From positions 1-64,000 of IMG/VR virus record IMGVR_UViG_3300025154_000073: a DNA stretch of 64,000 bases; one strand, written 5' to 3'. Source of the DNA: a virus. The notes under the pieces are model-generated. The model had not been told where the DNA came from. It made no database searches and saw only the letters and a program-made list of their open reading frames with translations. Each line of letters starts with the position of its first letter. The first letter of the stretch is position 1. Of this stretch, positions 18,995 to 46,447 are shown piece by piece. A program made the translations under genes and the position numbers.

Positions 18995-19066
18995 TCCTCA
19001 CATGACAATATGATATTTAGGTTAAATTATATCAGTAAACACGGTGTTTTCTTTACTTCGCCACAA

Positions 19067-23613: not shown

Positions 23614-23868
23614 TTATTTCTCCATTGCTCGGCGTTCTAACGGCGAGCGTGAGCAGCGCAAGCCAAGCCAAGATAATTGCGCCAGCCACCACGTGGCGAA
23701 GCGTCCGCTGCACGCTTTGGTAGAGGGCGGGTACATTTCTTCCCACCACGTATATTTCCACTCGTTATAAACACGCCACAAATCCCAGGCGTGAGTAAAT
23801 GCCTGCTCATGCCTATCGCATAACTCGCAAGTTCGATTGTACGGATTTCTGTATTTCCATTTGTGCAT
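23614..23868 (-). CDS. Cassette-like small Cys-containing protein reading through an attC-like site
   Basis: Between attI-like 23876-23890 and attC-like 23635-23725. Confidence 0.5.
   Translation of the reverse strand: MHKWKYRNPYNRTCELCDRHEQAFTHAWDLWRVYNEWKYTWWEEMYPPSTKACSGRFATWWLAQLSWLGLRCSRSPLERRAMEK
23635..23725 (-). mobile_element. Integron attC-like site
   Basis: Minus strand CTCTACC-AAAGCGTGCAGCGG...GCTGCTCACGCTCGCC-GTTAGAA; imperfect IR with extrahelical bases. Confidence 0.7.
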
Positions 23869-23875
23869 AGTAGCC

Positions 23876-23890
23876 TTCTAACTATGATTT
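23876..23890 (-). mobile_element. attI-like array start
   Basis: AAATCATA-GTTAGAA; shares AAATCATAGTT with 29061-29075; no upstream inverse core. Confidence 0.5.
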
Positions 23891-24021
23891 GACCAATTCT
23901 TGTCCGACAAAAATACTTATATCAAATAAGGCAAGAGCAGGAATATTTGACGCCATATTGTTATTATAAGTCTTATGTGGGGATTTATGGTGAGAATTAG
24001 ATTAGAAAACACGGTGTTTAC

Positions 24022-24348
24022 TCAACGTTCCTTATTCCTCTTTTCTGCTTCCTTCCAAATTCTAAGCCACGTTTCTCCGTGACAATTCTTTTCACCAGCC
24101 TTGCACCAGCAGGCGATGTGTTCAATCTTGTCAACCACGCATCTTTCCAAAAACTCGTTGATAAGTCCAACCTGTTCGGGTCTGCGTATCCACTCATCAA
24201 AAATAGCTTTCTGTTCCGCCTTTGTCTTTTTCTTCTTTCCGACATAATTACCGAAGTGAGTTCCCCTTGTAACCGTAAGCGTGTTCTTGGGTATTCTCTC
24301 GCCTGTCTGCCGACTTCTTGAAATTCTATTCATTATTTTTCTCTCCAA
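24022..24348 (-). CDS. DUF4326-like protein
   Basis: TRGT.FGN...IACWC......CHG motif. Confidence 0.65.
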   Translation of the reverse strand: MERKIMNRISRSRQTGERIPKNTLTVTRGTHFGNYVGKKKKTKAEQKAIFDEWIRRPEQVGLINEFLERCVVDKIEHIACWCKAGEKNCHGETWLRIWKEAEKRNKER

Positions 24349-24632
24349 TATAGGCTTAGTCCAAAACTTCTCGCTCCAGTCTTCCAGAATCCGAAGGTTG
24401 TAATCTCCACCCTGCCCTTCACCATCTTTCTGATGAAAGAACGCAGGAAGGACAGGGCTTTGTTGTGAAGTGACTCAACCATTATTCCCCTCAGTCAATA
24501 TCTCGGCTTGATACGCAATGTCCAATAAAACGGCATTCCTAAGTTCAATGTAATTGTCCTGCGTTATCTCCTCACGCATCATGGCGCGATACATATTTGT
24601 CAATATATCTTTGGCTTCATCCACCAGTTCTT

Positions 24633-25637
24633 TCATGCCCTCACCGCCATATTCACAGCATTTCTGAATTTGAACCCCAACAATATTGCATCATCAAATT
24701 TTTCGTTTCTAGGAGGAATAACCAATCTGCACCTTTTCTCTCCAATCTGCTTTGCCGTGTTCAATACAGCTACGACTCCATTGGGCTGTTTTACATAGGC
24801 GTCGGGGTCAAAGGCTAGATAAAAAATCTCTACGTCTGAGTCTGCAAGCATCTTCAATATTCTTTTTTCTGGCATTGAGGATTGTACACCGACTACCTGA
24901 AATTCAGATGAGAGTTCTCCCCATATCTCGGTAACGTCGGCTTTCTTCTCGCCCTCCATTACCACAACCTTATTTGACAATTTCCCGTTTTCATGCAGGG
25001 GAACGTATAAGTGCTGGCATCCAGATTTGTATAGATTTCTGTATCGGTCATTTGAGTTGGCGGGTTTAACAACGCGCAGTTTTACATTTTCAATTCGGTT
25101 TCCGAGTGTCCATATCGGGAAGGTGAATGCAGAGTTGTTATAGGTGGACAAACTTCCACGAACCTTATAATCTTTGATATATCCCTTTTGAAGATACTCT
25201 CTCCAATTTGGGGGAACTCCAATAGACTCGTAATACATATTTGCAATTTCGTTATCCAATCCGTCCTCGTAATATCTTTTGTAAAAACCTTGTTCCTCGA
25301 TGGTTCTGGAGAGTTCCTCAAGTTCTTTGGATTTCTTTTCAAAATATTCGCGTTCAAGTTGGACAACCTTTAATCTAAATTCTTCGCGCTCTTCGGAAGT
25401 CCATTCCGCATCTGATTTTTCTGGAGACCATTTATACCCACACTTGCGGCACAATCCAAAGGGAACTCCTCTGCGTGACGCAATCCATAAAACAAATCTA
25501 TCTGAACAAGTACCATCTTCGTGAATCTCGCCACCACAAGAAGGACAAGACGAATGGAATTCGTTAGGGGTTACTTGAACTACAAAAGATACCTTGCCTT
25601 GAAGAGATGCGAAGATTGGGGGAAGTAGATCGATCAT
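24633..25637 (-). CDS. DNA primase (Zn finger + TOPRIM)
   Basis: CPSCGG...CRKCG, MEGEKKA, FDPD; adjacent to helicase. Confidence 0.75.
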   Translation of the reverse strand: MIDLLPPIFASLQGKVSFVVQVTPNEFHSSCPSCGGEIHEDGTCSDRFVLWIASRRGVPFGLCRKCGYKWSPEKSDAEWTSEEREEFRLKVVQLEREYFEKKSKELEELSRTIEEQGFYKRYYEDGLDNEIANMYYESIGVPPNWREYLQKGYIKDYKVRGSLSTYNNSAFTFPIWTLGNRIENVKLRVVKPANSNDRYRNLYKSGCQHLYVPLHENGKLSNKVVVMEGEKKADVTEIWGELSSEFQVVGVQSSMPEKRILKMLADSDVEIFYLAFDPDAYVKQPNGVVAVLNTAKQIGEKRCRLVIPPRNEKFDDAILLGFKFRNAVNMAVRA

Positions 25638-26629
25638 TTTACACCTATTGGCTTTAGATAGATTTGGTCGTGAAATTTCTTGTCATAAATAAAAGAACCG
25701 CTTGGGTCGATGTGGCAGGGAAACACTCTTCCAACAACATCTTTTTCCCCAACAAATCCCATTTCCTCAGCATTACGACGTTTAACTATTCTAACAAATA
25801 CCAAGTTAGGTTCAACCTCGAAATTCCAATTACCTTCTTCTACTCTTGAATACATGGGGTGATCGTGCTTGGGTTGCCAGTAGGCATATACAATGTCTGG
25901 AATGGAATAAAGTTCCCCAGCCTCCGCAAGATCAGCCGCTCCAGGTATCCTCATTTTCTGCGTGTAGTTGTCTCTTTGAGTCTTCAATAAGGCTTGACTC
26001 GCTAATCCAATAGGACACTTAAACTTCTTGCAGGCGTGAAAAAGCCTGAGAACATTGTCGGCAGTTTGTAATCTCTTCTGGTCATTATTGGTCATCATCC
26101 TACGTTCAGGGTCGGGAGGAATAATTTGGGCATAATCTATTCCAATGTGAGTAAATTGCATTTTGTCCGCAAACTTTTCATTTGCTCCAAATTCAAGGGT
26201 CTTGATGATGTTACCGACATTTAGCTGAGCCATGTCATCCATTGACATTCCAAACGAATTGCCAATAAAAATAAACTGGTCATCCTGATAAGCAAGCGAA
26301 TCTCCGCCATACTTCTTGACCTGCTTTCCAGCAGTTCCTTCGGAAGTGTCCTCAAGGCTTACCAGACCCACCAACGTCCCCTGTTTACCCTCAATTCGTT
26401 TTTGTGCCTTGAAAGTTACATCACGCAAGGCGGTAGATTTACCTTGATGGGATTTTGCGGCATAGATGGCAAGCTCGCCTGGATACTGGTCTGGGACAAT
26501 ACCCTCAAGCCCCTCGATGTGGAACGGAAGGGCAAGGTGAGAGTTCTCTTTCAAAAAAATGTCGTAGGCGACTTTGTCTTCCCAAGTTTGTTGGGCAGTT
26601 TTTACGAAGTTGGCGGGTTTGAATGTCAT
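25634..26629 (-). CDS. DnaB-like replicative helicase
   Basis: Walker A AAKSHQGKS, SLE, IDYAQ, LASQ, KRR. Confidence 0.8.
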   Translation of the reverse strand: MTFKPANFVKTAQQTWEDKVAYDIFLKENSHLALPFHIEGLEGIVPDQYPGELAIYAAKSHQGKSTALRDVTFKAQKRIEGKQGTLVGLVSLEDTSEGTAGKQVKKYGGDSLAYQDDQFIFIGNSFGMSMDDMAQLNVGNIIKTLEFGANEKFADKMQFTHIGIDYAQIIPPDPERRMMTNNDQKRLQTADNVLRLFHACKKFKCPIGLASQALLKTQRDNYTQKMRIPGAADLAEAGELYSIPDIVYAYWQPKHDHPMYSRVEEGNWNFEVEPNLVFVRIVKRRNAEEMGFVGEKDVVGRVFPCHIDPSGSFIYDKKFHDQIYLKPIGVK

Positions 26630-26649
26630 AGAGAATGCACCGTGTTTTC

Positions 26650-27216
26650 TTAGTAGCTCAGTGGGATGTCGTTTGCGTCTTTTTTCTTTTCAACCAATCT
26701 GTTATTGGCTTCTCTTAATTCTCTTGCCTTTGCCGCGCACATATTAACCAGACTGGTTGGTTTTGCTACTGTGTATGGCGCAAGTCCATTCTTAAACCCA
26801 TTTTTCCAATCGGCATGAACTTTGATAAGTACTTCAACTCCGAATTCTGCACAATTTTGTTTTATAGCTTCCATTGCTTGAATGTAAAACGCATATTGTC
26901 CCTTACTTTTTTTATGCGGTTTAGACGGAAGCGAGAACATCCAAGTATCACGAAGGACACGAGCAATTTCCTGTACCGACTGAGGATAGTCTTTGTAATC
27001 TCCTCTAAATAATTCTACGTTGTATTCTCCCGCCATCTCGTCTGTTTTCCTTGCAATTCCAGAAATCCCCATCACGGCATCAACAAGCAGTTCTGACAAT
27101 CGTTCATAATTTTCTTTATATGGACTTTCGCATTCTAATCCATCAGAACAAAATATTGCCTCGTGTTTTAGAATATTTTCAAATTTCAATTTTAATTCTC
27201 TACGCAAAGTTGTCAT
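26650..27216 (-). CDS. Putative replication initiator-like protein
   Basis: Directly upstream of helicase/primase; start refined to MTTLRR (GGAGG RBS). Confidence 0.4.
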   Translation of the reverse strand: MTTLRRELKLKFENILKHEAIFCSDGLECESPYKENYERLSELLVDAVMGISGIARKTDEMAGEYNVELFRGDYKDYPQSVQEIARVLRDTWMFSLPSKPHKKSKGQYAFYIQAMEAIKQNCAEFGVEVLIKVHADWKNGFKNGLAPYTVAKPTSLVNMCAAKARELREANNRLVEKKKDANDIPLSY

Positions 27217-27239
27217 TCTTCCTCCTGCGAAAACACGGT

Positions 27240-27536
27240 TCATTCTTTTTTGGAAGGCTTTGCAAACCACTTTATTTTGTGGCCTACAAGTTTCATATGC
27301 TCTACTCTGTGCTTCTTTGCATTCCAACGGTCTAAAGATATTCCCAACAACTCTGTCAAACCCATAGGAATAGGGCCTCCGAAAATTCCAGGAAATCCAT
27401 CGGTGTCAATTTTGCAATCATAGCACCATATCTTATGTTCATATTCAGACCACTCAATATTTGTGCCATTGCATTTGTCACACGTGATGCAATATTCGTA
27501 CGGGTGCATAATATAATGCCACGTTCTTTTTCTCAT
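27240..27536 (-). CDS. Small zinc-binding protein
   Basis: CDKC...WSEYE..IWCYDC. Confidence 0.55.
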   Translation of the reverse strand: MRKRTWHYIMHPYEYCITCDKCNGTNIEWSEYEHKIWCYDCKIDTDGFPGIFGGPIPMGLTELLGISLDRWNAKKHRVEHMKLVGHKIKWFAKPSKKE

Positions 27537-27880
27537 TCTAATTCCTTTCTGATTATTTTATGACAGAATCATCCTAAGACTTCCTAATTAGCCACTCAGA
27601 TTCTTTAAAGAACCTCTACCCTATTAGGGTCAAGTAGGACTATTCATCCTGGACGTGGGCGGATTTATAACGGCGTACCGTCTCACCTTTCGGGATTCTC
27701 TGTTAGAGACACCCGCCCCGCCTGCCTCTGTGCTTTGACGCGGGGACGTTGTTGGGAGTCCTGCCACTCGGTTACTTAGTAGGCAGACTGCAATCTCTTT
27801 ATCGTATGAGAGCCTGTTTCGCTCAAAAATGTATTTTCGGATTAGGCAGGATTGCTAGTTGCTGTTCCGTTAAACGCAAA

Positions 27881-28025
27881 ATCCAGTTTTGACAACTGCG
27901 GCTCTGGCGGCTAAAAGAACTACCGCTCGCGCGGATATGGAAGGGATACCATAGCCGCAGTTGTCAAAACTGGATAATGTCGAAGTTAATATGTTCATTT
28001 GTCCTTTTAGCCTTTCGCGCTTCCA
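27881..28025 (-). ncRNA. Long hairpin with loop complementary to upstream leader (C4/CI-antisense-like architecture)
   Basis: Perfect 23-bp IR 27881-27903/27953-27975; loop GGCTAAAAGAAC pairs with GTCCTTTTAGCC (28001-28012). Confidence 0.55.
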
Positions 28026-28047
28026 CACGCTTTTCCTTACTCACCCA

Positions 28048-28076
28048 ATAGTAATCTCATCCTTGACGGATGTCAA
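28048..28076 (-). promoter_or_regulatory. Sigma70-type promoter of replication operon
   Basis: TTGACA-N17-TACTAT; -35 overlapped by palindrome CTTGAC-GGAT-GTCAAG. Confidence 0.7.
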
Positions 28077-28240
28077 GTTAAATCAGACAGGTCTTTTCTA
28101 TTCTTTTTGTCTTTCCACATCTCTCACAGACATAGGTTTCGGAGAACTCCGCATAATATCCGAAGCCAACGTACCTGAACTTACCCATCCTGAATGTGAA
28201 TGTATGACCAAAAAGAAAACACAGTGTTTTGTTTAGCATC

Positions 28241-28498
28241 TCATTCCTCTTTAGGTAATATGGTCACAACTGTTCCGCGCATCCCATCATAGACGACTCT
28301 TATACCATCTACAATGTGAACTGACACGCGGTTGGATTGACGCTCTACGAACTGAGAACGTCCCGCCCTGATTGCTTTTGCGATGGCTTTTACATCCACG
28401 ATCCTACCGAGCCGTTCTTGGGAACGTCTGCGGGCATGAGACATTTGTGCATTAGCTTTTATGGATAGGTCAGGATGTTTAGATTGATAGAATGACAT
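28241..28498 (-). CDS. Small basic protein flanked by two palindrome copies
   Basis: HARRR.QER...VVYD...VVT.LP motif; copies at 28214-28232 and 28498-28516. Confidence 0.55.
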   Translation of the reverse strand: MSFYQSKHPDLSIKANAQMSHARRRSQERLGRIVDVKAIAKAIRAGRSQFVERQSNRVSVHIVDGIRVVYDGMRGTVVTILPKEE

Positions 28499-28517
28499 AA
28501 ATACACCGTGTTTTCTA

Positions 28518-28643
28518 GCCCAACGGTTATGAGTTAGTGGTTTGCCGTATTACCGAATTGACAATGTTTGCTGTGGATTCCGTTTACTTCGCAACCACAG
28601 ACAGCGCACAGTATAGGCACATCCGCTGCACGCTTTGTTAGGT
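28518..28643 (-). mobile_element. Integron attC-like site
   Basis: ACCTAAC-AAAGCGTGCAGCGGATGTGCC...GGCAAACCACTAACTCATAACC-GTTGGGC. Confidence 0.75.
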
Positions 28644-28785
28644 GCGCTTGAAGTTGCGCCACTAACTCAGGCAAAAGGGAATTAGGAATTTTTATATCTC
28701 CAATTCCTTCATACCAAAAACCTGCTTCTTTTCTGACTTCAATTAGCAGGTATTCTTTTGTTGGACAAATTTTTATATTTTGCAT
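28534..28785 (-). CDS. Cassette ORF whose C-terminal CxxC..HxxxC is encoded by the attC
   Basis: LTKRAADV translation of attC R''/L''. Confidence 0.55.
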   Translation of the reverse strand: MQNIKICPTKEYLLIEVRKEAGFWYEGIGDIKIPNSLLPELVAQLQAHLTKRAADVPILCAVCGCEVNGIHSKHCQFGNTANH

Positions 28786-28791
28786 ATTAGC

Positions 28792-28899
28792 ACCCAACGG
28801 TTTGCGTAACCCGCTTTATGCAGGCGAAGTATCTTCAACTTTCACAGATTCGGGCAGGCCCAAAACGCCAGCCTTCAAGGAGTCGAAGCTGGGTTGGGC
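28792..28899 (-). mobile_element. Integron attC-like site (degenerate left arm)
   Basis: GCCCAAC...GCGGGTTACGCAAACC-GTTGGGT. Confidence 0.65.
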
Positions 28900-29032
28900 G
28901 CAATTCCAGACACGCAGGACAATCAACATCATTCCATCCAGTGCTTGCAAAACTCCAACCAGTGCTACCACATACGGCGATTGTTTTTGTATATGGCACA
29001 AGAAATTTTTTTACATGATGACAAGTAGGCAT
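28835..29032 (-). CDS. Cassette ORF, small Cys-rich protein
   Basis: AAGGA RBS after attI-like site; CG...CPAC. Confidence 0.5.
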   Translation of the reverse strand: MPTCHHVKKFLVPYTKTIAVCGSTGWSFASTGWNDVDCPACLELRPTQLRLLEGWRFGPARICES

Positions 29033-29060
29033 ATCTTATCCTTTCGGTTTCAGGGCTTCC

Positions 29061-29075
29061 GCCCAACTATGATTT
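29061..29075 (-). mobile_element. attI-like array start
   Basis: AAATCATA-GTTGGGC; first cassette R'' GCGCCCAAC complements GTTGGGCGG. Confidence 0.55.
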
Positions 29076-29121
29076 ATAAAGTAACCGCAATACGGAAATC
29101 ATTTAAATAACACGATGGTTT

Positions 29122-29159
29122 GCAGGGCGTACTCAACACTCTTATCAAGTACGCCCTGC
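29122..29159 (-). terminator. Hairpin after ssb
   Basis: 12-bp perfect IR GCAGGGCGTACT/AGTACGCCCTGC. Confidence 0.6.
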
Positions 29160-29164
29160 GCCAA

Positions 29165-29572
29165 CTAACCCGTCATGTATTCTGGCAAATCTTCTTCCTC
29201 GGAGGATGCTTGACTTTCTCCGCCAGATTTGCTTGAAAGAAACTTGACCAGAGAGGCGTTGATCTCAAGGGTTGAAGCCCAAGTTCCATCGCTCTTTTCA
29301 AAGATGCGTGGATTTCCTGTCGCTTTGTCAATAGAGACCTTGCCCTCAACGAACACCAAAGAGCCTTTATTCAGATACTTCTTGCAGGCTTCCGCCGCAC
29401 TCCCCCAGATTGACACCCGAAACCAAGTTGTTTCTTTTACGTGTTCTCCGCCTTTGGTATTGTATTCGTTTGTGGTGGCGACTGATAAATTGGTAACAGG
29501 CTGACCGGATGGGGTATAGCGCATGGACGGATCAGCACCTAAGCGCCCGATAATTTCTATTTTCTGATACAT
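29165..29572 (-). CDS. ssb: Single-stranded DNA-binding protein
   Basis: IIGRLG.DP.MRYTPSG, TTWFRV..WG, KGSLVFVEG, acidic tail. Confidence 0.92.
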   Translation of the reverse strand: MYQKIEIIGRLGADPSMRYTPSGQPVTNLSVATTNEYNTKGGEHVKETTWFRVSIWGSAAEACKKYLNKGSLVFVEGKVSIDKATGNPRIFEKSDGTWASTLEINASLVKFLSSKSGGESQASSEEEDLPEYMTG

Positions 29573-29573
29573 A

Positions 29574-30218
29574 CTACGCCTCTTTCTTCATCATGGCGTC
29601 AATCTCTGCCATCTTCTCTTTGATAAATTCGGCGGTTGAATCTCCGCTGATTTTGGGAACGTCTTTTATTCCGGCTTGATGCGCGGCGGCGAATTTTTCT
29701 CCAAACGCTTTTTGCAGGGATTGTAATTCGCTGGCTGGCTTTGGGGTTTTTAATTCGGGCTTGGGATGTTCCACAAGTTGTTTTGAGGGGCGTTCCTGGT
29801 CTCCAGATGGGTATTTATCTGGGTCGTCTCCTGTTTCAATATTGAAAGTTTGGCGAATGGCATACTTATACATGCCCGTCATTGCTTTGTTGCAACTCTT
29901 ATCTCCGCTGTCTGCCCCCTCGCCTAGTGATTGAACATCAATATAGCTTCCGCCAACGTGGGTAAATCTCACAATTCCGTGAACGGTGGTGTTAATCATC
30001 GCCGTTCCTTTTGCGGTTGTGTATTGCTCTCTGTTTGTCTCGGCAACTTGAAGTACGGAGACATACACTCCATGTTCAACCATTGACGGGCGAACCGCCT
30101 CAATCAATGCCGCCTCGCCTGCGTATGAGTATGATAGTCCCGCTCCCCTCTGTTTTTGAACATATCCCACTTCTTTCATTATTGCATTAATCGCTTCGTG
30201 AATATCTTTTTCTGACAT
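29574..30218 (-). CDS. ERF-family ssDNA annealing protein
   Basis: GEG.DSGDK...KAMT...KY.....F.I.TGDDPD. Confidence 0.8.
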   Translation of the reverse strand: MSEKDIHEAINAIMKEVGYVQKQRGAGLSYSYAGEAALIEAVRPSMVEHGVYVSVLQVAETNREQYTTAKGTAMINTTVHGIVRFTHVGGSYIDVQSLGEGADSGDKSCNKAMTGMYKYAIRQTFNIETGDDPDKYPSGDQERPSKQLVEHPKPELKTPKPASELQSLQKAFGEKFAAAHQAGIKDVPKISGDSTAEFIKEKMAEIDAMMKKEA

Positions 30219-30307
30219 TTCTACTCCTTGTTTTAGGTTACACCGACATTTGTCGTATGTTTCAAAAATTATTGTACATCAACTACCTGAGAATGGGGTG
30301 AGAAATG

Positions 30308-31075
30308 CTATTTCTTCAATTCTCCTTCCCATAAGATACCATCCTGACCATGAAGCCTCCATAGTTTTCCGTCAAAGGATGGGACTAATCCCACATTCCA
30401 TAAATCAACTGCTGGTTGATATGGATACGTCTTTTTCCAATCTTTTACAATGGGCACAAAAATACTGACCGTATAAGCCCACACAGAATCTCTCACAGAA
30501 TCTCTCACAGAATCCCACACAGAATTCCACACAGAATTCCACACAGAATTCCACACAGAATTCCACACAGAATTCCCCACAGAATTCCCCACAGAATTCC
30601 ACACAGAATTCCACACAGAATCTCTCACAGAATCTCTCACAGAATCCCACACAGAATTCCACACAGAATCCCACGCTTTAAGCAATTCCAATTCCTTTGA
30701 ACTGATTTTCCCATGTTTTAATGTAAATGGATTTAGTGGGCTGGCAGCTTTCAGATAATCCCATTTGAATAACGTTTCTGGTTTTACTTCCCGTTCTATT
30801 CTCAAGAATTCAAATCCCGCCTTATCCGATTCTTCGAGTACTGGAGTTCCATACACGATGTACGCAGAACATGGTATGGATGCTCCGATAAAGCATTGAT
30901 CTGGTTTTCGGCTGGCGTGAAGAAACGCATTTGAACATAACCTTCCAGTTTCGGAGAAATGTGGTGCGTACACATCCCACCCGACACTTTCTCGGTAGTT
31001 TATGGTTTTTCCTGTGTAAAAGTCAAAACCATCTGGTCTTGCGAGTTTGTAGAACTTTTGTAGTTTTGTTTTCAT
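30308..31075 (-). CDS. Tetrapeptide-repeat protein (paralog A)
   Basis: 16 x (W/R/G)(D/N)SV; C-terminus LW..GLVPSFDGK.WRLH. Confidence 0.7.
   Translation of the reverse strand: MKTKLQKFYKLARPDGFDFYTGKTINYRESVGWDVYAPHFSETGRLCSNAFLHASRKPDQCFIGASIPCSAYIVYGTPVLEESDKAGFEFLRIEREVKPETLFKWDYLKAASPLNPFTLKHGKISSKELELLKAWDSVWNSVWDSVRDSVRDSVWNSVWNSVGNSVGNSVWNSVWNSVWNSVWNSVWDSVRDSVRDSVWAYTVSIFVPIVKDWKKTYPYQPAVDLWNVGLVPSFDGKLWRLHGQDGILWEGELKK
30479..30674. repeat. 12-bp coding tandem repeat, 16 units
   Basis: CACAGAAT-containing units. Confidence 0.95.
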
Positions 31076-31087
31076 GTTATTTTCTCC

Positions 31088-31833: not shown

Positions 31834-32550
31834 TTAACTCTCATAATCAGTCTCCTTTTTGAAATTTAGCGGTCTGTCTATTTTATTTTCAATTATATAT
31901 TTATCATACGCAATTGCAGCATCAATTTCGTAAACATACGACCCCACATAACAGCGATTAGATTTTCCCTTTAACCTAAATCTACAATACCACCTATTAT
32001 GTTTTTCTGAGAAGAATATTCCGAAGAATTTTGATGACGCACTAGAAACTTTCTTTCCGAATCGGGGGTTGTTTTTCCACCCTTGCGCCAACTTCATTTT
32101 TTCTCTTGAGGCGTCTGCTATTTCTTCTCTATTTCTATTTGCTTCTGATATTTTATTGATGGCCTCTTTTGTGTGGTGTTTTCCATACATGGGATTTTTT
32201 TCTTTAGCCTGTGAACAAGACATTTTTGCCTTAGTTTCTTCTGTGCATCTCCCATGCGCTCCGGCATCTTTTTTGTTGTATCCAAATAATTTGTTTTTAG
32301 TGTGGTAAAAATTAATCCAATAATCCTCTCTGTCAACAAGCATTTCTACTGAACATACGTCAATAACTTCAAACAAGAAATTATATTCTCCGTATTTGTT
32401 CCACGCGTTTTGTAGGTGCGCGTTGTGTGCCGTGCCGTTTTTCAATAAAAAAATATGGTCTTTCCATCTATGCTTTATGTCAATAGATTGACCTATGTAG
32501 TTTTTTCCGCTTATTTTATTCATAATACGATAGATTCCGCATATAGGCAT
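31834..32550 (-). CDS. GIY-YIG homing endonuclease (NUMOD3 + AP2-like)
   Basis: GIY..I.N...YIGQS, NPMYGKHH, SSKFFG...AA.AYD. Confidence 0.85.
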   Translation of the reverse strand: MPICGIYRIMNKISGKNYIGQSIDIKHRWKDHIFLLKNGTAHNAHLQNAWNKYGEYNFLFEVIDVCSVEMLVDREDYWINFYHTKNKLFGYNKKDAGAHGRCTEETKAKMSCSQAKEKNPMYGKHHTKEAINKISEANRNREEIADASREKMKLAQGWKNNPRFGKKVSSASSKFFGIFFSEKHNRWYCRFRLKGKSNRCYVGSYVYEIDAAIAYDKYIIENKIDRPLNFKKETDYES

Positions 32551-33086
32551 TGTATATACTTCAAACAAACCACCGCCAATCTGCATTCCGAACTTGTCAC
32601 AGTTGCAGGAGCGCGGCAGACGGGCGGTGGTTTATCTCGGAATAAAAAATCTCCTGTGAAACTGTGACGAATTGATTATACCACAATCACGGATCAGCGG
32701 AAGGGTCATAAATACTCATCGCCCCTCCATCTCTTCAAGCAGGGAGACAGCTTGCAAATCCATGACTAACTGTTCGTCATAGTCGGGCTGGTTGTCCTGA
32801 CAAAAAACTTTCCAAACGCCCGTTTTACCCAGACCGTGAGTGTCGGAAAATAGGGATTCTGGCGGAGGACAGAAAGCATAACCTTTTTCGAGGAAACAGA
32901 AGTCAATTTCCGCACCGAACTCGGTCTCCACAGGGTAGGCATGACCTACGCACGCGCCGTGTTCGAGTTTGACCATTTGCTCGTGTTCAATGCACCAGAC
33001 GAACTCTGGAGCGTCTCGCCTCACGGAAGATACAAGGCGGTGTACGTGCGTTCCTAGTGAAGTTTTCATAATGTTCTCCTTTTCTC

Positions 33087-33905
33087 CTATTTTGTACATT
33101 CAAAGACGATCTCGGCATTTTTCCCTGAGTGTAATCTCCATGTTTTTCCATCAAACGATGGCACAAATCCTCGCTTCCATAGATCAACACAAGGCTGAAA
33201 TTCATAATTGTTATCCCAAATATAAAATAAACTTCCGATGTAAGCCCCCACAGAACCCCCCACAGAATCTATCACAGAATTCCCCACAGAATTCCACACA
33301 GAATCTCTCACAGAATCTATCACAGAATTCCCCACAGAATTCCCCACAGAATTCCCCACAGAATCCCACACAGAATTCCACACAGAATTCCCCACAGACC
33401 CCCCCACAGAACCCCCCACAGAATCTCTCACAGAATTCCACACAGAATCCCACACAGAATTCCACACAGAATTCCACACAGAATTCCCCACAGAATCTCT
33501 CACAGAATCTCTCACAGAATCCCACTGCTTTAATAATTCAATGTCTTTTTTTGTGGGCTTTGATTTATTGGCTAGTGGATTGATTGGATTTTGCGCTTCC
33601 TTGATATTAATTAATGGATATACCTCCTTTTTCCACTTCTTAAGGGAGCGCAGAGCCTCTGCTGAGTGTGAAGCAGACCACCATGACGGAATATCTTCTT
33701 CATCAACATTCAATGTCCAATCGCAATCTGGATATAAATATCCTTTATCTGGTGTGATCTCCACCTTTACGGAATTTCTAGATGCTTCTTTCAGTTCTGG
33801 GTACTTAGACAGATATCTAGAATACAGCGTGTCGTGAGAGGAAATGCCGCGCTCCCAAATTACTTGGTGACTTCTTGTTACAATACATGAAAAATCTTTA
33901 CACAT
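33087..33905 (-). CDS. Tetrapeptide-repeat protein (paralog B)
   Basis: 23 x (W/R/G/I)(D/N/G)SV; same C-terminus as paralog A. Confidence 0.7.
   Translation of the reverse strand: MCKDFSCIVTRSHQVIWERGISSHDTLYSRYLSKYPELKEASRNSVKVEITPDKGYLYPDCDWTLNVDEEDIPSWWSASHSAEALRSLKKWKKEVYPLINIKEAQNPINPLANKSKPTKKDIELLKQWDSVRDSVRDSVGNSVWNSVWNSVWDSVWNSVRDSVGGSVGGSVGNSVWNSVWDSVGNSVGNSVGNSVIDSVRDSVWNSVGNSVIDSVGGSVGAYIGSLFYIWDNNYEFQPCVDLWKRGFVPSFDGKTWRLHSGKNAEIVFECTK
33246..33524. repeat. 12-bp coding tandem repeat, 23 units
   Basis: CACAGA-containing units. Confidence 0.95.
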
Positions 33906-34926: not shown

Positions 34927-35038
34927 TTTAGCTCCTATTGTTTTACGTTAGTTTGTACGTGAGCTGCGACACAACCTTAATCATAAGATTTGCTTAAGTG
35001 TTGCGTTAAGCCTTGTTTCCTTTACTAGAATTCTCGGA

Positions 35039-35128
35039 CGGTTCATCCCCACGTGTGTGGGGAATACCATGGCAGGAATATAGTCACTGTCTCTTGACAC
35101 GGTTCATCCCCACGTGTGTGGGGAATAC
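35039..35128 (-). CRISPR. Mini-CRISPR array, type I-E-like, 2 repeats / 1 spacer, no cas genes
   Basis: Two identical 29-bp repeats GTATTCCCCACACACGTGGGGATGAACCG (35039-35067, 35100-35128) with a 32-bp spacer. Confidence 0.9.
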
Positions 35129-39210: not shown

Positions 39211-39239
39211 ATGATACACTATATCGTATAGTAATACAA
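39211..39239 (-). promoter_or_regulatory. Promoter with palindromic operator in spacer
   Basis: TTGTAT-N17-TATCAT; ACTATA-TCG-TATAGT between the boxes. Confidence 0.55.
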
Positions 39240-39951: not shown

Positions 39952-40083
39952 CTTTTTCTCCTATATTGCCCTACTTCAACGGAATACTAACACACTCTTA
40001 TGGATATGGTATTGTTTGTTATCCATCAGCTTAAAAAAAACACCACCCTACGAGCACTAGGGCTCCTCAAGTGGTTCTTAATT

Positions 40084-40112
40084 ATTATATGTTTTCTCTT
40101 AAAAATTGTCAA
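40084..40112 (-). promoter_or_regulatory. Consensus sigma70 promoter
   Basis: TTGACA-N17-TATAAT. Confidence 0.8.
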
Positions 40113-40955: not shown

Positions 40956-41691
40956 TTACTGAATGCGCCTGATGGTGATTGAAGGCGCGCCCTCAGTATA
41001 GCAATTCTTTATGTCAGAGTGGGTTTCTGTGTAAATCGTCCAACTTTGCGGGTATCCATATTTTTCTAGGCTTCCCGTAAATCGCGTGAAAGAATTTCCC
41101 TTTTACGCCTAAATCTTTGCATTTTGGATTTTCTTTCAACTTCTCGACAACGTGTTTTTTCATGTCATCTTTAATCTCGGCTTCGAGCTTCTTGATGTTC
41201 TCGTCAACATCTTCGGATTTGCCAGAGAACTCGGCTTCAATTTCAAGTTTGCGTTGCGCGATTTGGGCGTACACATCTTTGGTCTGTTGTTCGATTTCTG
41301 CTTGCAAAGCCCGTTTCTGGATTACAAGAGCCTCAGTTGCGATGTTTTCGTTTTCTCGTTTCTTAGCCACAATTGCTTGGCGTTGTTTCTCAATATCCGT
41401 AAACTTAGCCATTAGTTCTGTGCGTTGTCGGTCTATTTCTGCAAGCGCGATCTTGAATTCTTCCGGTACGACGATCTCCGCGATTTCCTTGTCAACATCC
41501 GCGTTGAACGCATTGATAGCCGCACGAGTCTTTGCTTCAAGTTCGGACGCCTGTTTCATCCCGTTACTGACAACAATCTCAATTTCGGCAGGAATCTTAA
41601 CTTCGTCAAGAAGTTTGCTTTTGTCAAGTTCGAGCAAATCTTTTTGTGCGTGGAACTCAGCAAGCAGGTCTAACTTTTGTTCGATTTCCAT
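40956..41691 (-). CDS. Coiled-coil protein, apparently frameshifted near 41033
   Basis: ORF stops at 41014, but removing one base at GAT-TTA-C gives ...LDDYTETHSDIKNCYTEGAPSITIRRIQ* ending at 40956. Confidence 0.55.
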
Positions 41692-41799
41692 TTTTATTTT
41701 CTCCTAAATACACGGTGTTTTCTCAAGATACTGCCCCGCCGCTCTGCAACCTTTCGCCAGAAACTTCAACATCGCGAGCAGATATTCGGACACGGCGGG

Positions 41800-42515
41800 G
41801 ATGAAATCGGGCGGGAGGCGCGGGGAAAACTTAATTTCCACTCCATAATTCACTCATTCTCGGCTCGGATTGCTCCGCCGCCCGATATTCATTTGGTAAA
41901 GGTTGAGGCGGGACACGTGGGCTAGGACACAGCCCGCCTCCGATCTTATGTGCAGGCACATGTTTTATCGTTGTTACCTAGTCTGCGCCGGATTTTATTA
42001 CCGGCCTCTTTTGATAAAATATTGAAGTAAAGTTGCTGTCTCTCCAAGCTGTCAAGCCTTCTGTCTAATGCTCTATTGGTTGTACTGGGCTTTCTCTACC
42101 GCAATTACACCTCAGCAATCGGGGCGGCATACTTCTGTCACAGTTGCGCCGCATTCATCGTATCTATTGTGACAATGAAAAATCTTATAAGGGTTCTGCC
42201 CAGCCGTCCTGCTTCTCAGTCAGGCTTGCGCCACCGGCTTACACATGTTTGTTATCTGTGCGTGCGGTACAGGGACCGGCTGGGGTGCTCTAAAACGAGT
42301 ATCGGTTCGGTATTTAGCCTGCCGATATTGTTATCGTCCACTCGTAATATTCTGTTTGCCCCGCCGCCAGTTAAGCCTAACTGATTTCACCGACTGGACA
42401 GCAACGACGGGGACTTTGATCGTGGAGAAGTCTGCTAATCAGGCTTCAAGCGGATAAAGGAGATACCGAAAACCGCCTTAGAACTTCTCCATTGAACAGG
42501 GCTACCCGTTCAATA
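41800..42515 (-). ncRNA. Large multi-hairpin structured RNA candidate
   Basis: No credible long ORF; serial IRs; extended -10 TGnTAAGAT at about 42521-42529. Confidence 0.5.
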
Positions 42516-42579
42516 AATATATCTTATCACAGTCTTGAAAAAGTACATTAATATAAGCTAAGAATTGCCTAATTTTCGG

Positions 42580-43032
42580 CTAAGTGTTTCTATATATTTC
42601 TCTTTTATCCGATTTTATGGTGAAATCCAGGATTATATGCAGGGCATCAGAAAGGCATATCCCTACGAACCATTGACCGAATTTATCGGGCAAGTGCGCG
42701 GGAAGTCCGAGGTAATTTAGTATAAGTATGGGCAACGCCAGGTATCCTACGCGCAATACTGTACCAAAAAAGATGCTGTGAGATATTACGCTTCGATGTT
42801 TAACGATTTTAGAGTAGGGTAGCCAAAATACGCGCCATGCAAGAGATAGAGGTTTACCAATTATGGGGATTCGCCTGAGATGGTGAAGTCCCAAAAAACC
42901 CTCGTCAATATCCAAGTCCGGCGAGAGGATTAATCCAGACAGGATTCCAACGGTAAGGGCTGGCTCGAAAGCACAAACGCTTCCTAAAGCCAGCCCGATT
43001 GTAGTCATTGAATGCGTTTTTCCAGAAGGCAA
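42580..43032 (-). CDS. DUF2227-like metal-binding membrane protein
   Basis: MPSGKTH, LSPDLD, W.PY....HRS..SH, H...D. Confidence 0.75.
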   Translation of the reverse strand: MPSGKTHSMTTIGLALGSVCAFEPALTVGILSGLILSPDLDIDEGFLGLHHLRRIPIIGKPLSLAWRVFWLPYSKIVKHRSVISHSIFFGTVLRVGYLALPILILNYLGLPAHLPDKFGQWFVGICLSDALHIILDFTIKSDKREIYRNT

Positions 43033-43229
43033 ATTCTACTCACTCAATCCATATTTGAAAAATAGAACCAAAAACAACACAACCAGGATAACTAGAATCT
43101 GGATGAGCAGAACACCCGCCGCGATTGTTCTTCGAGCCAGTTCTATCTGCTCATCAGTCCATTCGGGAATGCTTGGCTTTACGGGGACTGCGTATAGATG
43201 CCCGTCAGAAGTTCTAAAGTAGTCGTATT

Positions 43230-43568
43230 TCATTTTTCACCACACAGATATTTGGCACGAACGACGCCCGATCCGCCTTCAAAAGTTATCCGATACCACA
43301 TATTGCCATTTACGTCATACAGTTTCTCAATTATCTCGACTGGCGTTCCGTCCGCAAAAGGCTCTTCGCGAACTAAAGGGAAAGACGTACCCGCGCCTGT
43401 GCGGATGTTCAACCCGTAAGAACCACAAACCACCATTTCAACCATTGGTTTGACTGTTTGTTTGGCAGTTCCTCCAAACTGTGAACTATTAGCACTTTTG
43501 GGCAACGTTGAGGCAACCCCGCAAGCCAGGGAAGTAAGAATTAACAAGACCATCAATCGGTTCATCAT
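43230..43568 (-). CDS. Lipoprotein with SH3b domain
   Basis: LILTSLAC lipobox; LNIRTGAGT...WY.I...G.V...YL. Confidence 0.75.
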   Translation of the reverse strand: MMNRLMVLLILTSLACGVASTLPKSANSSQFGGTAKQTVKPMVEMVVCGSYGLNIRTGAGTSFPLVREEPFADGTPVEIIEKLYDVNGNMWYRITFEGGSGVVRAKYLCGEK

Positions 43569-43878
43569 ATTTTGCCTGTTTTCAATTTTGAATGGTTTAC
43601 TCGTTTGCTGTTAGCGCGTTCCACTAACCACTCCGCCAATACAGGTTTCCAACTCTCCCAAGCGTCAGGGTTGTTGGTTTTGCTGATTGTGCAAACGGTC
43701 AGAGGATATTTACCGCGTTTTACGATCACAATTGAACGTGGAGGACTACCAACTGCAAACCAGCGCAAGTCTTTCCAGTCGCCAATGTGGGCTTCGCTGG
43801 CTATCTCGGTTAGCAGTTGTGTTTCTCGAACCTTTGGGATGGGCAAGGCAATGGGTGTTTGCACTACTAATTCCGTTG

Positions 43879-44571
43879 TTAGTTCCCATTGCCGCGAGTT
43901 TTTGTTTTGTTTGCAATCGCCTCGAATTCGTCAATTGCCTTATTCTGACCCATTTGCGCGCCTTTTTCGCCGTACAAACGAGCAAGCTCTGCGTTTCTGC
44001 CCTTCATCACAATTTTCTCGCCTTCGATTTCGGCAGTACGCTTATCCCTTGTTAGTTTCCTTGTTTGTTCCCTAAAATCGCGCTCCAGAGCCGCATCGGG
44101 GTCGTTTCGTCTGTATTGCCAGTCCGCGTAAAGGTGTCCGCCCGCTAACACAAAGATGCAAACAACCGCTAATAAACCTAAATACACTTCCATATTTGGG
44201 ATGGTCAGTAAATATGCCATATCGCTCTGGGCTATTTCGATTGTCGCTCCCGCTAACATGGTCAACACGGAAGCCGAGAGGGTCAAATATACCATCGTGT
44301 TTGCAATTGACTCTTGTTTGTTTGTGTTAGTTCTGCCATCGTCAATTGGGTCTGCTTCATATTCCCGCCAACGCCAATAAAGATAACCTCCCTCCATCAA
44401 ACAAACGCCTAAGGCGGGAAGCCATAATGCCCACTTGGGAGCAAACGTTCCAACTAAAAAATATGTTTGCGTGCTACTAACACCCAGAATAACTACCGTC
44501 ATCCAATGGTCAACCAAAAAACGACCAAACCTTACCGCTTGTATTTTTGCTTTTTCTAAGGCGTCCATCAT
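43879..44571 (-). CDS. Four-TM membrane protein with C-terminal coiled coil
   Basis: Hydrophobic segments; GGAGG RBS. Confidence 0.6.
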   Translation of the reverse strand: MMDALEKAKIQAVRFGRFLVDHWMTVVILGVSSTQTYFLVGTFAPKWALWLPALGVCLMEGGYLYWRWREYEADPIDDGRTNTNKQESIANTMVYLTLSASVLTMLAGATIEIAQSDMAYLLTIPNMEVYLGLLAVVCIFVLAGGHLYADWQYRRNDPDAALERDFREQTRKLTRDKRTAEIEGEKIVMKGRNAELARLYGEKGAQMGQNKAIDEFEAIANKTKTRGNGN

Positions 44572-44789
44572 TCCTCCGTCTGTTTCCAAGTGCTGTTTGG
44601 GATTACTATGTTTCGAACTCCATCATGCTCCAGAAGTCCATCTGTTTCCAAGCTATCAAGAAGATACTTCATCACTGACTTTGAGGTTATCTTGCAAGCC
44701 ATCATAATTTCATCATACGATGGACTGTTGCCGTTGTGTTTCTTTTTGTAATCAATGACGAATTTTATGATTCTACTTTTATCAAACAT
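44568..44789 (-). CDS. LexA-type DNA-binding-domain-only protein
   Basis: FVIDY...NG.SPSYDEI...C.ITSKS....L..LE..G. Confidence 0.8.
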   Translation of the reverse strand: MFDKSRIIKFVIDYKKKHNGNSPSYDEIMMACKITSKSVMKYLLDSLETDGLLEHDGVRNIVIPNSTWKQTEE

Positions 44790-44803
44790 ACTCGCTCCTT
44801 AGT

Positions 44804-44845
44804 GAACTTTCGTTCTATTCTAATTCCAAAGACTCCAGCCGTCAA
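44804..44845 (-). promoter_or_regulatory. Promoter TTGACG-N17-TAGAAT followed by SOS-like box GAAC-N4-GTTC
   Basis: -35 44840-44845, -10 44817-44822, GAACTTTCGTTC 44804-44815. Confidence 0.7.
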
Positions 44846-44951
44846 GGGAAAACACGGTGTTTATTGCTATTCCAAACACTAATAAATTTCTCATATAAAA
44901 CCCTTGCGCTTTTCCTTATATCGTATATACTTATGGAAAGGATAAAAAAAG

Positions 44952-45323
44952 ATGATAGCTGTGATTAAATATGACGGAAAAAAGATTTTTGAAAAGTTTA
45001 TGCGAATGGGCGCGGCATCCAGTATGCCCAAGATTCGCAAATGGCTCAGGACGGAGGAGAACATAACCGTCTCCCAGATGGGTCCAATCTGGGCAATGTG
45101 GAAGTACGCCACCCAGAACCCGGAAGAAGCGTTTCCCCTCTACAAGGTTTGGCACTTTGAGTATTGGTCAAACGTGAGTGTTATGGGAAAGATAATCGAC
45201 TCAAACGCAACCTTTGAATCCTTCTTAAAGGATTGCCAGTATAGAATCAAAAAATCTGGCGATTCAATAATGAGCAAAACCGCATATAAAAGGTTTTGTA
45301 ATAAGTATGGTCTTGAGGAGTAA
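44952..45323 (+). CDS. Hypothetical protein, first gene of rightward arm
   Basis: Divergent from LexA-like gene. Confidence 0.5.
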   Translation: MIAVIKYDGKKIFEKFMRMGAASSMPKIRKWLRTEENITVSQMGPIWAMWKYATQNPEEAFPLYKVWHFEYWSNVSVMGKIIDSNATFESFLKDCQYRIKKSGDSIMSKTAYKRFCNKYGLEE

Positions 45324-45777
45324 AGAGGGTAGTATGCCTAAATACGATCTAATTGAAGCGGAGATACAATGGTGCGAGACACATCGCAATCCTGATGATC
45401 CTGAGCAAACGATCTACCAAGATGGTTTTGTTGCTGGTTTATATCAGGCACTTTGGCTAATGAAAAGTAGACAAACAAACGAAAATTACATTCCGAAAGA
45501 TAAAGATGCCGTTATTCACCCAGATTGGTATTCTCTCGCGCTTTTGAAGCGCATTGAATTAACCAATTCGCAAATTGATACTCTGTTGAAAAATGAGTTG
45601 TCAACGAGAAGCAGAAAAAAAGTGTTGCAATATTTTAGGGCGCGCAAAAAGCCCCGCAAAGGAAATTAAATGAAAAAATTCAAAGCCGTGCCAGTGGCAC
45701 ACAGTAAAGATGATTTGGGCGGGTACAGGCGGGCATGCGGGGTGGTGTGAATTGGAAAAGTATTGGGTGGCACTTCG

Positions 45778-45799
45778 CCAGTAACGCAAACCGTTCTAC
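45778..45799 (+). mobile_element. attC-like right arm (L'/R')
   Basis: CCAGTAACGCAAACC-GTTCTAC. Confidence 0.6.
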
Positions 45800-45823
45800 C
45801 GCACTTGCAAACAAAGGAGTCTT

Positions 45824-46087
45824 ATGACTAAGAAATTGAAACTTGAGAATACAGAGCGTGGCTTTGCTAGGTCAGATTTTGATGACCTATATGGTAGTCA
45901 TTGCTCAATTCAGGAAAGTAGCCTTGCCACAGATAATGCAATCTGGCTTGGCGTGCATGAAGGTTCGGCGCAATATGACAATAAAGAAAGTTCTCGTATG
46001 CACTTGAATCAAGAACAAGTAGCGTCATTGCTCCCGCTTTTGGAGCGTTTTGTGAAAACTGGTCGCCTTCAAACGAGAAGGCGATAG
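45824..46087 (+). CDS. Cassette ORF, conserved-looking small phage protein
   Basis: CSIQESSLAT..AIWLG...RMHL..EQV..LLP.L..FV.TG.L; AAGGAG RBS. Confidence 0.65.
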   Translation: MTKKLKLENTERGFARSDFDDLYGSHCSIQESSLATDNAIWLGVHEGSAQYDNKESSRMHLNQEQVASLLPLLERFVKTGRLQTRRR

Positions 46088-46175
46088 AACACGGCGTGCA
46101 ACGGATTTGCTTTACGGGCTGGCAAAATCGGGAGCAATGACACAATCCGCAAACCGCTCACGCAAACCGTTCGGC
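46084..46175 (+). mobile_element. Integron attC-like site
   Basis: ATAGAAC-ACGGCGTG(C)AACGG(A)TTTGC...GCAAACCGCTCACGCAAACC-GTTCGGC. Confidence 0.8.
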
Positions 46176-46204
46176 GGACACGCCCAACGCCCAGAAGGAG
46201 AAAA

Positions 46205-46432
46205 ATGTTAGAACTGTTTTTGTCTGCTCTCGAAGATCAACTAGGTCTTATTGTAGACCCTCCATTAGCTCCTATTGCCCGCATGGGTATTATCAGCCAA
46301 GAAATCACCCGCATAACATCCAGCGGGCTAACAAAGCGTGCAGCGGATGTGCTGGAAGTCTGCGATAATTTCAAGAAAGCACGCGATGGTAAATGTTTCA
46401 ACTGCGGTCACGCGGAATCCGTACACCGCTAG
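46205..46432 (+). CDS. Cassette ORF with attC-encoded C..CxxCGH...H tail
   Basis: LTKRAADV read-through; AAGGAG RBS. Confidence 0.55.
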   Translation: MLELFLSALEDQLGLIVDPPLAPIARMGIISQEITRITSSGLTKRAADVLEVCDNFKKARDGKCFNCGHAESVHR

Positions 46433-46447
46433 CGCAATCTGTTGACG
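46326..46447 (+). mobile_element. Integron attC-like site
   Basis: GGCTAAC-AAAGCGTGCAGCGGATGTGC...ACACCGCTAGCGCAATCT-GTTGACG; 25 nt identical to the 28518-28643 site. Confidence 0.7.

Follow-up and report, generated by a model that had tools for sequence, protein, structure and literature searches.

Putative integron cassettes with Anaerolineales-type attC sites in a tailed phage without an integrase

The stretch analysed here (the window) comprises the first 64,000 nt of the 73,044-nt IMG/VR virus record IMGVR_UViG_3300025154_000073, which is linear and estimated to be 81% complete. The record is a tailed phage. It encodes a large terminase (TerL, 48037-49434), a portal protein and an endolysin, together with replication and recombination genes (an Erf-like annealing protein, a single-stranded DNA-binding protein (SSB), a DnaB-like helicase, a primase, a NinG/Rap-like nuclease and an exonuclease), two DNA methyltransferases and a GIY-YIG homing endonuclease. 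The coding strand is minus between approximately 18 and 44.8 kb and plus thereafter. The window harbours five sites that are, with hardly any doubt, homologues of the attC sites of integrons. Arrays 2 and 3 have two attC sites each, while site A (array 1) stands alone, 4.8 kb from array 2. The sites, the open reading frames (ORFs) of their cassettes and a relic arm are:

23635-23725, minus strand: attC A, with an R'' ending in ACC and not AAC
23614-23868, minus strand: ORF of cassette A, 84 amino acids, with a 180-nt duplicate at genome positions 71998-72177 (minus strand)
28518-28643, minus strand: attC B, left arm exact, right arm decayed, stems with non-pairs
28534-28785, minus strand: ORF of cassette B, 83 amino acids, reading through its own attC; no Pfam or PHROG family
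28792-28899, minus strand: attC C, right arm and R box retained, left arm divergent
28835-29032, minus strand: ORF of cassette C, 65 amino acids, with a homologue in the attC-bearing stretch L062
45778-45802, plus strand: relic right arm GCCAGTAACGCAAACC with core GTTCTACCGC, opening cassette D
45824-46087, plus strand: ORF of cassette D, 87 amino acids, phrog_3849 (phage family of unknown function, E 2e-25)
46084-46175, plus strand: attC D, the best preserved, with R'' GCGATAGAAC and R' GTTCGGCGGA
46205-46432, plus strand: ORF of cassette E, 75 amino acids, taken from the ORF list and reading through its own attC; no Pfam or PHROG family
46326-46447, plus strand: attC E, with an R' (GTTGACG) off the GTTRRRY consensus

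The sites were evaluated with a covariance model (R1) that contains no window sequence. Viral contigs were searched with the left-arm pattern AACNNNGCGTGCARCGGA, which gave 117 stretches with 122 distinct sites. A loose rule found a possible right arm in 76 of the 122 sites, some of them false, and a stricter rule left the 73 full sites from which R1 was built. Run on the window with filters off, R1 recovered exactly the five sites listed above, at 46081-46178 (plus strand, 65.8 bits, E 3.9e-15), 46323-46450 (plus strand, 59.5 bits, E 1.8e-13), 28515-28646 (minus strand, 42.7 bits, E 4.3e-9), 23632-23728 (minus strand, 41.9 bits, E 7e-9) and 28789-28902 (minus strand, 16.9 bits, E 0.023). These alignments carry 3-nt flanks beyond the coordinates of a preliminary description of this DNA, which had placed the five sites from the sequence alone and had proposed an attC covariance model on the genome as a check; all five placements hold. 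No further match fell below E 1 (the next had E 1.3), site C was missed at default filters, and the scores are in the lower half of those of the attC family. An Rfam search returned no families at gathering scores. As the family was fished with the left-arm pattern of the window, the R1 scores are circular in their left-arm share, and the independent evidence comes from the right arm, the stems and the R boxes.

Motif counts in the window agreed with the R1 matches. The left arm AAAGCGTGCAGCGGA is present in three exact copies, and in seven copies at up to 3 mismatches against 1.30 expected (0 of 100 shuffles reached seven). The right arm ACGCAAACCGTT has three exact copies, at 28796, 45784 and 46160; the copy at 45784 demonstrates that the lone right arm proposed at 45778-45799 is real. 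The GCCAGTAACGC variant of the arm is present in stretches L024 and L059 as well, and R1 found no full site at 45778-45802 at E up to 10. The five sites are 91-126 nt long and form GC-rich islands, at 0.49-0.63 compared to a 95th percentile of 0.523 for windows of 130 nt. Four of the five sites (A, B, D and E) have the left arm with unpaired C and A, as had been described; its partner right arm is good in A, D and E and decayed in B, and site C has no recognisable left arm. Sites B and E have 25 identical nt in common. The R boxes that had been attributed to all the sites were recovered: GTT is present in five of five and AAC in four of five, but A has ACC and the core of E is GTTGACG. A protein motif (..LTKRAADV.. 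in B and E) was considered instead of a DNA element and rejected, because A reads the same DNA in another frame than B and E; the conservation is consequently at the DNA level.

The family follows a constant plan: RYYYAAC, A-N-A, GCGT, GC, AGCGG, A, an inner stem, a variable part, the complementary inner stem, CCGCT, A, ACGC, AAACC and GTTRRRY. Lengths from R'' to R' fall into groups of approximately 54-56, 86-89 and 118-127 nt (64-137 nt in the 73 model sites, 3-nt flanks included). The named structure is 85.6% paired in the 73 aligned sites, compared to 27-43% when partners are slid by 1-3 columns, and helix 2 reaches 95.6% pairing. The inner stem, whose five pairs were unused in sequence selection, shows double-sided changes in 22-34 of the 73 sequences per pair, a covariation that 0 of 500 shuffles attained. 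Extrahelical bases are a hallmark of attC sites. The family left arm carries unpaired GC and A against one unpaired A on the right arm, which bears out the extrahelical G and T that had been read on the bottom strand, and the family stem is seen in the bottom-strand centroid fold of attC D, its '' arm carrying unpaired bases. In Cury et al. (NAR 2016, PMC4889954), the legend of Figure 2 shows 'extra helical bases'. Single-strand folding energies of the window sites gave no extra stability compared to shuffles (z -1.5 to +0.9); as one bacterial attC site beside intI likewise gave only z -0.33 (against z -3.5 in a 58-nt family member), this test does not discriminate for long sites.

The arrangement of the R boxes was analysed in 143 sites (18 loci and the window), dropping 7 sites without GTT or AAC/ACC and pairs more than 1500 nt apart, which left 110 pairs. 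Compared over 7 variable positions with the preceding R' (reverse-complemented), R'' agreed at 6.20, with 65 of the 110 pairs perfect (19 of 22 in bacterial and 46 of 87 in viral loci), compared to 3.72 of 7 against its own R' and 3.56 of 7 in random pairs. This signature is predicted by G/TT cutting of circular cassettes (Cury et al. 2016, PMC4889954, in the part consulted). In the window, R'' matched the preceding core at 6 (A), 6 (C), 5 (B), 6 (D) and 3 (E) of 7 positions, which adds up to 26 where the null is 15.4 (sd 2.8, P 0.0005), while matches to the own R' were 5, 5, 3, 2 and 2 of 7. The complementarity previously noted in four of five cassettes, with the cassette at 46205 (E) as the weak case, is thus reproduced (6, 6, 5 and 6 vs. 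3).

The starts of arrays 1 and 2 and the genes directly upstream of array 2 are:

29058-29081, minus strand: attI-like junction CTTTATAAATCATA/GTTGGGCGGA opening array 2, so called for its likeness to the junction beside intI
29165-29572, minus strand: SSB (phrog_44, E 8e-33), in an Erf-SSB pair directly upstream of array 2
29574-30218, minus strand: Erf-like annealing protein (phrog_155, E 9e-26); the pair occupies 29165-30218
23873-23890, minus strand: start of array 1, AAATCATA/GTTAGAAGGC; AAATCATAGTT is common to it and the start of array 2

At the first GTT of array 2 (CTTTATAAATCATA/GTTGGGCGG, G at 29067), the preceding 14 nt agree with the intI-adjacent junction at 12 of 14 positions in locus L255 and at 10 of 14 in both L254 and L253. 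Over all GTTs in the intI loci, the probability of at least 10 matches was 0.0009 per GTT; the test covered 214 GTTs. The start of one viral array (L038) matches the L255 junction at 14 of 14 positions. By its sequence, the start of array 2 appears to resemble a bacterial attI junction. The opening of array 1 (AAATCATA/GTTAGAAGG) reached 9 of 14 at best to an attI, which is non-significant, and no arm precedes its GTT; array 3 begins at the lone right arm. The arrays end directly after R', adjoining phage intergenic motifs.

A palindromic motif, AGAAAACACGGTGTTTACT, lies directly 3' of the last core in arrays 2 and 3 and approximately 115 nt upstream of array 1. It has at least 13 copies, mostly intergenic (832, 3801, 19029, 23999, 26627, 28209, 40937, 44842, 46454, 47191, 51242, 53018, 60627 and others), and is probably a phage regulatory or termination signal.

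A profile search of the whole 73,044-nt record found neither an integron integrase (IntI, TIGR02249) nor a PF00589 domain, in keeping with the absence of a tyrosine recombinase previously remarked for the window alone. With at least two attC sites each and no intI nearby, nor anywhere in the 73 kb, arrays 2 and 3 are attC clusters that have no integron-integrase (CALINs). Five array-rich viral records were also searched, and no integrase was found in them; the window TerL had no match in these five records, which are therefore not close kin. One of the five, G001 (38,412 nt, direct terminal repeats, rated 100% complete), encodes portal, terminase, major head, tape-measure and endolysin proteins; its stretch L077 gave 15 R1 sites, 14 with E no higher than 1e-7.

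IntI was found together with this attC family in bacteria. The right-arm motif CCGCTAACGCAARCCGTT was present in at least 120 stretches of the genome collection; among the 80 matches listed, 57 had titles such as Anaerolineae, Anaerolineales or Chloroflexi (including Ornatilinea, which we take to be a member of the Anaerolineae) and 23 had other phyla or 'bacterium'. IntI scored above the curated cut-off in three of five such genomes (438-460 bits vs. 265). R1 arrays adjoin intI, on the opposite strand, in three of three IntI-bearing Anaerolineales genomes (10, 7 and 14 sites, 31 in total). The Anaerolineae link suggested at the outset is upheld by the 57 titles among the 80 listed. Across 151 sampled Anaerolineales genomes, 55 had IntI above the cut-off. 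In IMG/VR, IntI relatives were present on at least 517 stretches; among the best 80 of these, two shared their contig with attC stretches (L069/L290 and L075/L334). R1 sites were downstream of intI on the same strand in 6 of 14 IntI-bearing IMG/VR loci checked, and a phrog_2 terminase was present in only one of five IntI-bearing IMG/VR records checked. Some array-carrying 'viral' contigs may consequently represent integrons of hosts, or proviruses flanked by host DNA, and only the 73-kb record and G001 were counted as phages in this work.

The IntI relatives of six of these IMG/VR loci (L290, L294, L295, L296, L334 and L352) are 49-62% identical to the IntI of Anaerolineales. The layout of intI and attC is same-strand in these six and divergent in the three Anaerolineales genomes.

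No Pfam or PHROG family was above threshold for four of the five cassette ORFs. The coding parts of the cassettes have a GC content of 0.34-0.44, compared to 0.436 overall. Promoter-like sites were not enriched in the cassettes (8 vs. 11.2 expected, and 3 vs. 4.4) and none was inside the five attC sites; no terminator-like site coincided with any of the five.

In a subset of long sites of the family, the cassette ORF crosses the attC as ..KRAAD.., CxxC..CxxC and a stop inside the right arm (CCGCTAACGC), as in L010, L016, L044, L068 and others, and at 28534-28643 and 46326-46432 of the window. The recombination site in that subset therefore encodes a zinc-ribbon-like tail. Such a tail was rejected as a general trait of long attC sites, since at most 3 of 97 long sites had, in any one frame, two CxxC motifs and a right-arm stop.

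Several features of the genome speak of movement and decay. Cassette A has a duplicate (copy F) outside the window, at genome positions 71998-72177 on the minus strand, between plus-strand genes near the record end (172 of 180 nt identical, 96%); of the 8 differences, most are silent as we read the alignment. The identity sets in 1 nt ahead of the GTT core, where the flank is AAATCATA on one side and the right-arm-like CACGCAAAA/GTT on the other, and it stops exactly after GCAGCGGA, the end of the conserved left arm. Copy F was rejected as a full attC, since R1 found no full site there. A second relic lies at 19 kb:

19067-19801, minus strand: PAPS-reductase gene (phrog_424), a former cassette by comparison with its relatives
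19058-19082, minus strand: relic attC TAACGCAAGCC-AATA-GTTGTGG, its left arm deleted in comparison with the intact 65-nt attC of the L077 orthologue

The PAPS-reductase gene is 84-86% identical to genes in L077 (3210-3938) and L101. The L077 gene is placed between two attC hits and ends in an intact 65-nt attC, whereas the relic behind the window gene is an attC minus its left arm. Further relatives are 70% identical in L116, where the gene end is the attC start, and 79% in L183. The window genes 20294-20521 and 20518-20724 and the methyltransferase gene 47188-47868 have homologues in attC-bearing stretches, at least one per gene being located between R1 sites (L024:8932-9147, L007:2666-2797 and L024:4582-5190, respectively). 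Cassette C is 52% identical over 40 amino acids to L062:4464-4571, directly before the attC L062:4572-4673; both have the same attC subtype 3', and the right-arm alignment stops at GTT. In total, cassettes or relics are present at four or more loci of the phage genome, and at least two right arms stand alone (19.07 and 45.78 kb). Four contigs with a full-length TerL 71-89% identical to that of the window, plus a fifth with a partial one, had no R1 site. The slot of array 3 between two conserved genes is 1348 nt here, 217 and 790 nt in two of the TerL relatives, and has one extra small gene in a third. The TerL relatives are too diverged at the DNA level to place cassette boundaries at G/TT.

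On this evidence we consider it probable that the elements are genuine integron cassettes with Anaerolineales-type attC sites, residing in an integrase-less tailed phage, and the cassettes probably entered it by IntI-type recombination. As the phage has no integrase, it probably borrows one to gain genes. The unit is a promoterless small ORF followed by an attC, which on the coding strand consists of R'' (RYYYAAC), a spacer, the left arm GCGT-GC-AGCGG-A, a variable stem-loop, the right arm CCGCT-A-ACGC, AAACC and R' (GTTRRRY). The folded single bottom strand forms a hairpin with extrahelical G and T. In the most probable history, circular cassettes would be inserted between G and TT by an IntI acting in trans, from the host or a co-resident element. 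For array 2 the target would be a phage-borne attI-like site just behind the Erf-SSB genes; at the other loci it would be an existing attC or a plain GTT. Later decay and partial deletion would have left the five recognisable sites, the lone right arms (at least two) and the truncated duplicate. Whether the phage currently acquires and shuffles genes through a host IntI, as the preliminary description proposed, is a separate matter: the attI-like start of array 2, the cassettes at four or more loci and the IntI of 55 of 151 genomes are consistent with it, and we regard exchange continuing today as possible, at slightly less than an even chance.

Several points weigh against this interpretation. 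An integrase could lie in the part missing from the 81% complete record, and the attC family is the only pointer to a putative Anaerolineales host. The cassette coding parts have the GC of the phage and so were not imported recently from a host richer in GC. Damage is present in three of the five sites (ACC in the R'' of A, non-pairs in the right arm of B, 16.9 bits for C), and E combines an off-consensus R' with only 3 of 7 matches to the preceding core. The A/F identity ends inside the left arm and not at G/TT, an end that deletion or homologous exchange would explain better than cutting by IntI. Moreover, the phage encodes its own Erf, SSB, NinG/Rap-like nuclease and exonuclease, which could move cassettes via the conserved arms.

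The last point leads to the main rival, in which cassettes born in integrons are moved among phages by the phages' own homologous recombination (Erf-type annealing) with no need of an integrase, the conserved arms of 12-25 nt serving as short homologies among co-infecting phages, prophages and host arrays. Short homology, even when diverged, is tolerated by Rad52-like recombinases of phages. Array 2 directly follows the Erf-like and SSB genes, the phage further encodes a Rap/NinG-like nuclease and an exonuclease, B and E have their 25 identical nt in common, and the A/F duplicate stops exactly at the conserved left-arm end. Even the R box signature is compatible with this route, as exchange from a right arm to the next left arm keeps R'' with the preceding core. 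However, annealing of arms explains neither the attI-like junction of array 2 nor the start of the A/F identity at GTT, with one flank devoid of any arm, and it is unable to create the first cassette at a new locus. We hold this rival unlikely.

The same junction can be turned around: if pieces of host integrons (attI plus cassettes) had been gained once or a few times by illegitimate recombination and were now decaying without function, an attI-like end would be expected, as in a captured platform, and the low site scores, the three damaged sites and the lone right arms at 19.07 and 45.78 kb would follow as well. Such fossils are less easily reconciled with cassettes at four or more separate loci, with phage-type cargo (phrog_3849, PAPS reductase phrog_424) of phage GC, with arrays ending right after R' beside phage intergenic motifs, with a record in which no intI remnant was found, or with the unrelated complete phage G001 retaining at least 14 sites; we judge them somewhat more improbable still. 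Least credible, and in our view very improbable, is that the hairpins are kept for a function of the phage itself (transcript ends, RNA stability or the target of an unrecognised phage recombinase) and are attC-like only secondarily. The sites are indeed GC-rich islands (0.49-0.63) at gene ends of an AT-richer genome, and attC sites are thought to hold weak terminators (Qi et al. 2023, PMC9892861, as far as consulted). But the terminator-like sites coincide with none of the five, the single-strand folds are no more stable than shuffles, and the same family forms arrays beside IntI in bacteria.

Beyond the interpretation as integron cassettes in one phage, a wider possibility is more doubtful than true in our estimation, but deserves mention: a guild of Anaerolineales phages, including the 73-kb phage and the unrelated G001 (complete, 38 kb, with terminal repeats and at least 14 cassettes), might use integrase-less integron platforms as a regular system of gene exchange. 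Such phages would have their own attI-like docking site (here behind Erf-SSB) and host-type attC arrays, with IntI provided in trans from the host or a co-resident element. They would draw on a phage-adapted cassette pool of DNA methyltransferases, PAPS reductase and phrog_3849, and attC erosion would turn cassettes into ordinary phage genes, as at 19 kb.

Integrase-less attC clusters in phages were already published in 2023; the family-wide context may be new. Qi, Rajabal, Ghaly, Tetu and Gillings (Front Microbiol 2023, PMC9892861) report, in the sections consulted, 17 CALINs in 10,705 NCBI phage genomes, methyltransferase cassettes among them, and recombination with IntI1 at G/TT for five of six phage attC sites tested. 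The present case is alike in having attC sites and cassettes in a phage genome without intI and methyltransferase cassettes, here in the related array L024. It differs from what those sections describe in that the attC family is linked to a single host order and used by the integrons of that order, in the attI-like start and the cassettes or relics at four or more loci, and in being an uncultivated phage known from its sequence. Integrons in Chloroflexi were noted by Cury et al. (PMC4889954), from whom, again in the part consulted, the definition of a CALIN (at least two attC, no intI nearby) is taken. The sedentary chromosomal integrons of Anaerolineales have the attC family, the R''-to-preceding-R' signature and promoterless small ORFs in one orientation in common with the window, but the phage lacks intI, has one or two cassettes per array between replication and packaging genes, and shows phage GC and gene families. 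A route for first cassettes is offered by cassette insertion at genomic attG outside att sites, where IntI cuts a bare 5'-GWT-3' (bioRxiv 10.1101/2022.09.11.507474, as far as its accessible text goes): the start of array 1 (AAATCATA/GTT) is armless and without significant attI likeness. Unlike the present case, the accessible text of that work concerns IntI1-3 in E. coli and not Anaerolineales IntI, and array 2 is attI-like, not attG-like.

The PeSL elements of T4-type phages, reportedly described by Arbiol et al. in 2010 as 'mobile regulatory cassettes', are said to carry an early promoter per element and to move by homologous recombination. They resemble the arrays in that small ORFs in plastic phage regions are bracketed by a repeated stem-loop thought to drive shuffling; here, by contrast, there is no promoter-like sequence inside the sites and no enrichment of such sequences, and the repeat is a host integron attC. 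In the literature searched we found no attC arrays in Anaerolineae phages and no phage attI-like site, although supplementary tables might contain such cases. New here are the relic arm behind the PAPS-reductase gene, the cassette A duplicate and a complete 38-kb phage with at least 14 sites.

The phage is known from groundwater: 6 groundwater runs from 3 studies each contain at least 0.94 of the words of the stretch. Contigs of four other runs listed no joint, but these contigs are short, of low depth and uninformative on excision. One contig of 1215 nt is identical to window positions 28361-29575 and one of 394 nt covers 45913-46306; loose ends of such contigs are located at attC arms. Searches for relatives returned methyltransferase fragments only and no relative among GenBank phages, no relative for a second anchor gene among viral contigs, and one distant relative (55% identical) among metagenome contigs. 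Elsewhere in the window, 35038-35127 carries two perfect 29-nt repeats (35038-35066 and 35099-35127) with an inner palindrome, separated by a 32-nt spacer; size and spacing are those of type I-E CRISPR, and the pair may be a phage-borne mini-array. Its spacer had no match in the collected loci or elsewhere in the genome, and Rfam gave none at gathering scores. A 12-nt tandem repeat forms long runs at 30386-30746 and 33141-33550, within two minus-strand ORFs (30308-31075 and 33087-33905) that have the repeat unit in common. Approximately 900 nt (27330-28240) contain only short ORFs on both strands and a 27-nt inverted repeat (27881-27907/27949-27975, 96% complementary); this may be non-coding or origin-like DNA. 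Two GIY-YIG-type homing endonuclease-like genes are located in the early region (31834-32586) and among the head genes (54894-55664), with an N-terminal motif in common.

Integrons are usually regarded as bacterial devices, and working phage attC sites were shown only in 2023, in a handful of cultured phages. Here, the cassettes of an uncultivated groundwater phage can be assigned, one site family after another, to the integrons of a single host order that is abundant and little studied, and one genome displays stages of the process: an attI-like entry, intact cassettes, decaying sites, a lone arm next to a gene that other phages still have as a cassette, and an internal duplicate. Viral contigs otherwise without host signal can also be linked to a host through the attC family. 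If host IntI acts on these sites, phages would be a route for cassettes between cells, and cassettes a route for accessory genes of phages, methyltransferases for instance. Cassettes of chromosomal integrons are reported to encode anti-phage defences (bioRxiv 2024.07.02.601686 and 2024.07.02.601719, in the parts consulted), and a gain of cassettes by phages, if true, would mirror this. Should a guild of Anaerolineales phages indeed exchange genes in this way, cassettes would be a common currency of phages and hosts and a source of phage 'morons'.

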